This document shows, in pieces, positions 22,648 to 24,196 of a stretch of 64,000 nt of DNA. The notes below the pieces were generated by a model, which was not told the origin of the DNA, did not search any database, and was given only the letters and a program-made list of their open reading frames with translations. The DNA is from Escherichia coli (GTDB lineage: Bacteria; Pseudomonadota; Gammaproteobacteria; Enterobacterales; Enterobacteriaceae). Both the position numbers and the translations under genes were made by a program. The stretch is taken from NCBI RefSeq assembly GCF_045037415.1, contig NZ_CP173438.1. The stretch is one strand, 5' to 3'. Each line of letters begins with the position of its first letter. Positions within the stretch are counted from its first letter, which is position 1.

Positions 22648-22740
22648 AAAAAAAACCGGATGCGAGGCATCCGGTTGAAATAGGGGTAAACAGACATTCA
22701 GAAATGAATGACGGTAATAAATAAAGTTAATGATGATAGC
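22648..22740 (-). ncRNA. micF: MicF antisense small RNA
   Basis: Minus strand reads GCTATCATCATTAACTTTATTTATTACCGTCATTCATTTCTGAATGTCTGTTTACCCCTATTTCAACCGGATGCCTCGCATCCGGTTTTTTTT, i.e. the micF sequence with its intrinsic terminator; divergent from ompC. Confidence 0.85.
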
Positions 22741-22894
22741 GGGAGATATTCTAGTTGCGAGTGAAGGTTTTGTTTTGACATTCAGTGCTGTCAAATACTT
22801 AAGAATAAGTTATTGATTTTAACCTTGAATTAATATTGCTTGATGTTAGGTGCTTATTTTGCCATTCCGCAATAATCTTAAAAAGTTCCCTTGT

Positions 22895-22996
22895 ATTTAC
22901 ATTTTGAAACATCTATAGCGATAAATGAAACATCTTAAAAGTTTTAGTATCATATTCGTGTTGGATTATTCTGCATTTTTGGGGAGAATGGACTTG
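22895..22996 (+). promoter_or_regulatory. ompC promoter with OmpR binding boxes
   Basis: TTTACATTTTGAAACATCTA-type OmpR boxes followed by a GAGAAT -10 element about 80 nt upstream of the ompC ATG. Confidence 0.6.
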
Positions 22997-23074
22997 CCGA
23001 CTGATTAATGAGGGTTAATCAGTATGCAGTGGCATAAAAAAGCAAATAAAGGCATATAACAGAGGGTTAATAAC

Positions 23075-24196
23075 ATGAAAGTTAAAGTACTGTCCCTCCT
23101 GGTCCCAGCTCTGCTGGTAGCAGGCGCAGCAAACGCTGCTGAAGTTTACAACAAAGACGGCAACAAATTAGATCTGTACGGTAAAGTAGACGGCCTGCAC
23201 TATTTCTCTGACAACAAGTCAGAAGACGGCGACCAGACCTACATGCGTCTTGGCTTCAAAGGTGAAACTCAGGTTACTGACCAGCTGACCGGTTACGGCC
23301 AGTGGGAATATCAGATCCAGGGCAACAGCGCTGAAAACGAAAACAACTCCTGGACCCGTGTGGCATTCGCAGGTCTGAAATTCCAGGATGTGGGTTCTTT
23401 CGACTACGGTCGTAACTACGGCGTTGTTTATGACGTAACTTCCTGGACCGACGTACTGCCAGAATTCGGTGGCGACACTTACGGTTCTGACAACTTCATG
23501 CAGCAGCGTGGTAACGGCTTCGCGACCTATCGTAACACCGACTTCTTCGGTCTGGTTGACGGCCTGAACTTTGCTGTTCAGTACCAGGGTAAAAACGGTA
23601 GCGTAGATGGCGAAGGCATGACCAACAACGGTCGTGGTGCCCTGCGTCAGAACGGCGACGGCGTTGGCGGATCTATCACTTATGATTACGAAGGCTTCGG
23701 TATCGGTGCTGCTGTTTCTAGCTCCAAACGTACTGATGATCAGAACTTCGGCCTGAACGGTTATGGTGAGCGTTATTTGGGTAACGGCGACCGTGCTGAA
23801 ACCTACACTGGTGGTCTGAAATACGACGCTAACAACATCTACCTGGCTGCTCAGTATACCCAGACCTACAACGCAACTCGCGTAGGTTCCTTGGGTTGGG
23901 CAAACAAAGCACAGAACTTCGAAGCTGTTGCTCAGTACCAGTTCGACTTCGGTCTGCGTCCGTCTGTAGCCTACCTGCAGTCTAAAGGTAAAAACCTGGG
24001 TGTCATCAATGGTCGTAACTACGACGACGAAGATATCCTGAAATATGTTGATGTTGGTGCGACCTACTACTTCAACAAAAACATGTCCACCTACGTTGAC
24101 TACAAAATCAACCTGCTGGACGACAACCGCTTCACCCGTGACGCTGGCATCAACACTGATGACATCGTAGCTCTGGGTCTGGTTTACCAGTTCTAA
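23075..24196 (+). CDS. ompC: outer membrane porin OmpC (373-aa allele)
   Basis: N-terminus [37 protein letters not shown]; porin beta-barrel ending in a C-terminal Phe (..LVYQF). Confidence 0.95.

Follow-up and report, generated by a model that had tools for sequence, protein, structure and literature searches.

The micF–ompC Locus in an Escherichia coli Genome: The MicF RNA, the ompC Porin Gene, and the Regulatory Region Between Them

Introduction

The locus considered here raises a simple question: does a small RNA gene and a porin gene, lying back to back, form an intact unit with OmpR sites that serve both? The genes are micF and ompC of E. coli. No regulatory antisense RNA encoded on a chromosome had been described before micF (1984), and the micF–ompC locus has clinical relevance, since loss of porins contributes to antibiotic resistance. 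We analyzed it in a stretch of 64,000 nucleotides from one E. coli genome (contig NZ_CP173438.1), the whole of which is called the window.

Identity of the Locus

We consider it close to certain that the region is the canonical E. coli micF–ompC locus, and no feature of its sequence speaks against this. Between the protein-coding genes rcsD and ompC is an intergenic region of 738 bp (window 22337-23074), and micF lies inside it, divergent from ompC and upstream of rcsD, as the synteny of MicF requires. The gene order, rcsB-rcsD-micF / ompC-apbE-ada, is shared with K-12 (micF b4439, ompC b2215). The rcsD–ompC region of K-12 is likewise 738 bp, and the two align with no indels; 727 of the 738 bases are identical, leaving 11 substitutions. 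Coincidence of the elements by chance is excluded. The identity, integrity, and structure of the locus are demonstrated, as are the conservation of its sequence elements and the potential of MicF to pair with ompF. The locus is already known, a textbook case, and here it is intact and ordinary, in the majority E. coli form. It has little weight as a discovery.

The MicF Gene and RNA

The features of micF are as follows.

22648..22740, minus strand: micF gene, encoding a 93-nt Hfq-class antisense sRNA, with +1 at the G at 22740 (Rfam and K-12 alignment)
22708..22740, minus strand: MicF nt 1-33, the predicted region of pairing with the ompF translation start (duplex prediction)
22695..22710, minus strand: MicF internal stem-loop, nt 31-46, of 6 bp with a 4-nt loop (MFE fold)
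22648..22676, minus strand: MicF Rho-independent terminator, a 10-bp stem (nt 65-87) and U8 tail (terminator scan)
22748..22753, minus strand: putative micF -10 hexamer TAGAAT (-13 to -8), accompanied by a weak -35 (read from the sequence)

The earlier note had placed micF, with a recognizable terminator, at 22648..22740 of the minus strand, and had named a covariance-model search as one check. The coordinates prove exact when aligned with the curated K-12 record, in which micF is a 93-nt ncRNA between ompC and rcsD. The search, run over the whole window with cmscan and Rfam 15, bears out the assignment: RF00033 (MicF) matches 22648-22741 of the minus strand with 116.8 bits (gathering threshold, 79; E = 9.5e-18). 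The match spans model positions 1-94 of 94, so that it is full length and not truncated. The terminator is likewise found by the terminator scan, with its 10-bp stem at 22676..22654 closed by a 3-nt loop and followed by eight U residues. A U-tailed terminator is the usual Hfq-binding 3′ end in the sRNA class to which MicF belongs. A relaxed-threshold Rfam search of 22000-24400 gave no other credible RNA match; a match to Spy1786666, 21 bits against 64, is at chance level and was rejected.

The 93-nt RNA has a predicted fold of -21.4 kcal/mol (z = -5.4), and none of 200 shuffled sequences was equally stable. Within E. coli, 3231 of 5374 genomes have exactly the micF allele of the window. The allele of K-12 is the minority one, identical at 92 of 93 positions. 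The exception is MicF nt 82 (22659), which is C in the window and U in K-12, giving a G-C pair in place of a G·U pair in the terminator stem.

Predicted Pairing of MicF with the ompF Leader

The ompF gene is outside the window, and the ompF leader was therefore taken from K-12. Strain SK1144, which is 99.99% identical to window 1-50001, has the same leader (100% identity), and this leader is present in 5420 of 5426 E. coli genomes. When the 33-nt seed of MicF was tested against the ompF translation initiation region (-40 to +20), nt 1-33 were predicted to pair with ompF from -17 to +11, a stretch that takes in both the AUG and the Shine-Dalgarno sequence. This 25-bp duplex has a predicted energy of -27.1 kcal/mol; shuffled sequences average -11.0 kcal/mol, and none of 2000 did as well. 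With the start of the neighboring ompC, the same segment reaches only -14.1 kcal/mol. Pairing of full-length MicF with 140 nt of the ompF leader produced a duplex that extended too far and lacked significance (z = -1.8), and the 33-nt seed was used in its place. MicF is reported to block translation initiation by pairing across the start codon and ribosome-binding site of ompF (PMC5745476, PMC9988348).

The ompC Gene and Its Regulatory Region

The following features are found on the plus strand.

22896..22955, plus strand: OmpR sites C1 (22896-22915), C2 (22916-22935), and C3 (22936-22955) (exact match)
22961..22989, plus strand: ompC core promoter, with -35 TTGGAT (22961-66), a 17-bp spacer, and -10 GAGAAT (22984-89) (read from the sequence)
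22996..23074, plus strand: ompC 5′ leader of ~79 nt, with a 5′ hairpin, MicC target, and Shine-Dalgarno sequence (start approximate)
23028-23061, plus strand: predicted MicC target site, with its core at 23045-23060 (pairing prediction)
23062-23066, plus strand: ompC Shine-Dalgarno sequence GAGGG
23075..24196, plus strand: ompC, encoding outer-membrane porin C, 373 aa with a signal peptide (complete ORF)
24215..24241, plus strand: ompC terminator, a hairpin and T tract (terminator scan; hairpin 24215-24234, 8 pairs, 5 of them G-C)

The encoded protein matches Pfam Porin_1 (PF00267) over residues 27-373 (E = 1.7e-142), as a full-length 16-strand general porin should. It is 92% identical to K-12 OmpC (373 versus 367 aa). 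The differences cluster at three indel blocks, of +6, +4, and -4 aa, which probably lie in surface loops. The records of SK1144, at the same coordinates, and of strain KA0011 list the identical protein as WP_000865587.1.

The OmpR-box-like repeats and the -10 element that the earlier note had reported in front of ompC are both present. For the repeats, we used a 60-nt C1-C2-C3 block. The block has one exact occurrence, at 22896-22955, and all its columns are identical in K-12. Within it, TGAAACATCT occurs at 22905 and 22926, 21 bp apart, and these are the sole two exact copies in the 64 kb. The published C1 oligonucleotide, 5′-TCCCTTGCATTTACATTTTGAAACATCTATAGCGAT-3′, includes the C1 sequence and TGAAACATCT (PMC2586830); the window differs from it solely at 22894, two bases outside C1. 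The three tandem 20-bp predicted OmpR sites are immediately upstream of a weak ompC -35. The -35 and the -10-like GAGAAT are identical to those of K-12. The claim that the locus is intact also stands, given a full-length micF, a complete ompC ORF, and exact C1-C3 sites.

The ompC core promoter matches the consensus at 7 of 12 positions and falls under the threshold of a consensus scan, as expected for an activator-dependent promoter. The scan missed the core promoters of both genes, its sole matches being a 9-of-12 site inside C2-C3 and one near 22575, and it was dropped as evidence. The real micF and ompC promoters are weak and activator-dependent.

The ompC transcript presumably starts near 22996. 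The leader is identical to that of K-12, and its 5′ hairpin is formed by an inverted repeat (22995-23008 / 23015-23028). K-12 MicC nt 1-22 are predicted to pair with 23028-23061 at -26.5 kcal/mol, a value equaled in none of 2000 shuffles. The sequence GAGGGTTAAT is found twice in the leader, on the plus strand, at 23010-23019 (hairpin loop and 3′ arm) and at 23062-23071 (the Shine-Dalgarno region).

A similar design is seen at micC-ompN, where another porin-repressing sRNA gene is divergent from another porin gene (PMC5745476; K-12 annotation). The two loci are connected, the ompC leader of the window being a target of MicC. micC-ompN differs in that the sRNA belongs to another family with another target, that it lies elsewhere in the genome, and that OmpR represses MicC instead of activating it (PMC5745476).

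Conservation Across the Enterobacteriaceae

Species-representative genomes were scanned with the first 22 nt of micF. The scan gave 120 loci, from ~30 genera of the Enterobacteriaceae, and one chance match. In the latter, a MAG labelled Chitinophaga pinensis, the 22-mer matches and the sequence then diverges at once; it is not micF and was left out of the synteny count. Sufficient flank was available for 110 loci, and in 109 of these an OmpC orthologue starts on the strand opposite to micF, 322-345 nt from the micF +1; the distance in the window is 335 nt. The sole locus of the 110 with no OmpC orthologue at that distance is in Enterobacter sp. EA-1 (CP025776.1), where a 38%-identical porin is found ~500 nt away.

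The loci contain 102 distinct micF sequences. The two helices of MicF are paired in 97.3% of cells, compared with no more than 38% in controls with slid partners, and changes on both sides are seen in 8 of the 16 pairs. For the internal stem-loop, the paired fraction is 99%. For the terminator stem it is 96%, and both sides vary in 6 of the 10 pairs. The pair of nt 82 is the most strongly covarying of all, being GC in 50 sequences, AU in 33, and GU in 19. Judged from these sequences, the nt 82 difference between the window and K-12 maintains pairing and is of the compensatory type. Nucleotides 23-35 are invariant or nearly so, and nt 1-22 are identical by construction because they were used as the search pattern.

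The conservation of each element was scored relative to the window, across genera.

micF -10: 0.86
Mar/Sox/Rob box candidate: 0.84
22792-22895, from that box to C1: 0.53
C1 / C2 / C3: 0.86 / 0.76 / 0.89
ompC -35: 0.99
ompC -10: 0.84
ompC leader: 0.83

Conservation therefore peaks (0.76-0.99) at C1-C3, at both core promoters, and at the Mar/Sox/Rob box candidate, and it is 0.53 in the stretch between that candidate and C1. Short conserved islands are seen in this variable stretch, at 22806-22822, 22842-22846, 22851-22855, and 22881-22890. They may be further regulator sites of those in the literature (IHF, Lrp, H-NS; PMC1489923).

Proposed Regulation of micF and ompC

Transcription of the locus, OmpR binding, Hfq dependence, and the regulatory outcome would be expected to follow what has been published for K-12. 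We propose the following scheme. The ompC gene (plus strand) would be expressed from a weak promoter that needs phosphorylated OmpR on the three tandem 20-bp sites, C1-C3, upstream of the -35. By analogy with K-12, for which they are known from the literature, OmpR-P binding and osmolarity-dependent activation of ompC are likely here as well. The linker of ~253-255 bp would, according to the literature, also raise transcription of micF. The micF gene (22740..22648, minus strand) would be transcribed away from ompC to give the 93-nt sRNA, whose 3′ hairpin and U tail would end transcription, with Hfq binding expected as in sRNAs of the same class. The single-stranded 5′ segment of MicF, ~33 nt, would pair with the mRNA of ompF, a gene located elsewhere in the genome, over its Shine-Dalgarno sequence and start codon, so that translation is blocked and OmpF is lowered. 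Since OmpR would drive both ompC and micF, high osmolarity would turn OmpC on and, via MicF, help turn OmpF off.

A Mar/Sox/Rob box over the micF -35 could add control by oxidative and antibiotic stress. The candidate is as follows.

22772-22791, minus strand: Mar/Sox/Rob box candidate ACAGCACTGAATGTCAAAAC, -51 to -32 of micF (consensus pattern)

The site has one mismatch to AYNGCACNNWNNRYYAAAYN (22773-22791, minus strand), is identical in K-12, and overlaps the micF -35. In the 64-kb window, 1.3 chance occurrences of the pattern are expected. As it is not above chance by itself, the site is kept only as a candidate, supported by its position and conservation.

The genes ompF, ompR/envZ, hfq, and micC are outside the window, and their presence is judged from near-identical genomes; for ompR, the proxy is its occurrence in 5425 of 5426 complete E. 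coli genomes.

Alternative Readings of the Region

The earlier note held that the divergent genes share OmpR sites. All the elements of such an arrangement are present, with sites identical to those of K-12; the dual role of the sites comes from the literature. The only substantive rival is that C1-C3 serve ompC alone, so that micF is run mainly by proximal regulators such as SoxS/MarA/Rob, Lrp, and H-NS, any OmpR effect on micF is indirect, and the region is shared only physically. The layout lends this reading some plausibility, since C1-C3 abut the ompC -35 and yet are 156-215 bp upstream of the micF +1, where the Mar/Sox/Rob box candidate overlaps the -35. It has also been stated that direct activation of micF by OmpR needs further experiments (PMC5175337). 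However, micF and ompC are described as joined by a ~253-bp regulatory region in which the OmpR sites serve the activation of both genes, and which also carries sites for IHF, Lrp, and H-NS (PMC1489923, citing Coyer et al. 1990). A second source also has the OmpR sites serving both genes, and it names EnvZ-OmpR, together with SoxS and MarA, as positive regulators of micF, with H-NS binding the region (PMC5745476). A ChIP-exo study includes micF in the OmpR regulon (PMC5438342). The micF–ompC spacing, held at 322-345 nt across genera, fits a functional linkage. On balance, we regard OmpR sites for ompC alone as unlikely and favor sites that would act on both genes.

Another reading is that the sequence resembling micF is a relic without function, or that the real gene is a protein-coding one. 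A mechanical ORF of 75 aa with a TTG start (22567-22794, minus strand) does span micF. However, it has no Pfam match, and the K-12 and SK1144 records examined contain no annotation for it. Moreover, the RNA is full length and is the majority E. coli allele, and its structure is maintained by covariation, so that we give a relic or a 75-aa gene next to no credence. A second mechanical ORF in the intergenic region, of 79 aa, also lacks a Pfam match and is not annotated in K-12 or SK1144. Both ORFs were rejected as genes, neither having a Pfam match. The reading that we retain is that of an RNA gene, micF, divergent from ompC.

Comparison with Other E. coli Genomes

Of 5426 complete E. coli genomes, 5376 contain the rcsD–ompC region, and in many of them, ST131 strains included, it is 100% identical to that of the window. 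One such genome is SK1144 (NZ_AP018784.2), in which the intergenic region is 100% identical and window positions 1-50001 are collinear and 99.99% identical, with 4 mismatches and 1 gap. By these alignments, the source genome stands very near to SK1144 and to strains of the ST131 type.

Of the 11 substitutions that separate the window from K-12 in this region, three fall in or beside functional elements. These are 22659, in the MicF terminator stem; 22746, at -6 of the micF promoter, where the window has T; and 22894, 2 bp upstream of C1, where the window again has T. It could be asked whether the lineage differences (the stronger G-C pair at 22659, T at 22746, T at 22894, and the 373-aa OmpC with its three indel blocks) cause a measurable shift in the OmpF/OmpC balance or in the permeability of the outer membrane in the ST131-like lineage. 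We think this very improbable.

Four of the genomes that match best (KA0011, UID2404240038, ST131 strain 4993, and Ecol_542) have an annotated IS1 element that splits the intergenic match. The element was mapped in KA0011 only. There, it is in the ompC 5′ leader, after the equivalent of window position 23033, with a 9-bp target duplication (23025-23033). From its position, the IS1 of KA0011 would separate ompC from its own promoter. The ompC leader of the window contains no IS1, and the porin-control module is therefore intact.

Annotation of micF

SK1144 and the ST131-type genomes show essentially no difference from the window at this locus, and their RefSeq annotation is without a micF feature. 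The prediction that ORF-based annotation would miss the sRNA is realized in SK1144, where the RefSeq record is blank between rcsD and ompC. No micF feature was found in any of the RefSeq genomes sampled; only the curated K-12 record has one. Since identical loci are annotated without micF, sRNA-aware annotation with covariance models is needed.

Other Features of the Window

Several further features were seen outside the micF–ompC locus. Two matches to Rfam naRNA4 (RF02564) lie on the plus strand between the convergent genes rcsC and rcsB, at 18797-18873 (66.7 bits) and 18911-18987 (70.0 bits); they look like REP/BIME-type repeats. A tRNA-Pro gene (anticodon GGG; 45976-46052, minus strand) and an L25 ribosomal-protein leader (RF03131; 49768-49793, minus strand), the latter upstream of rplY, are both expected in such an E. 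coli region. According to the SK1144 annotation, an autotransporter pseudogene, frameshifted and with an internal stop, is at ~44921-45843 (plus strand), between narP and the tRNA-Pro gene. The same annotation has an alpha-2-macroglobulin family gene at 1512-6026 (plus strand), a single intact CDS of 4.5 kb in the yfaA-yfaP cluster.
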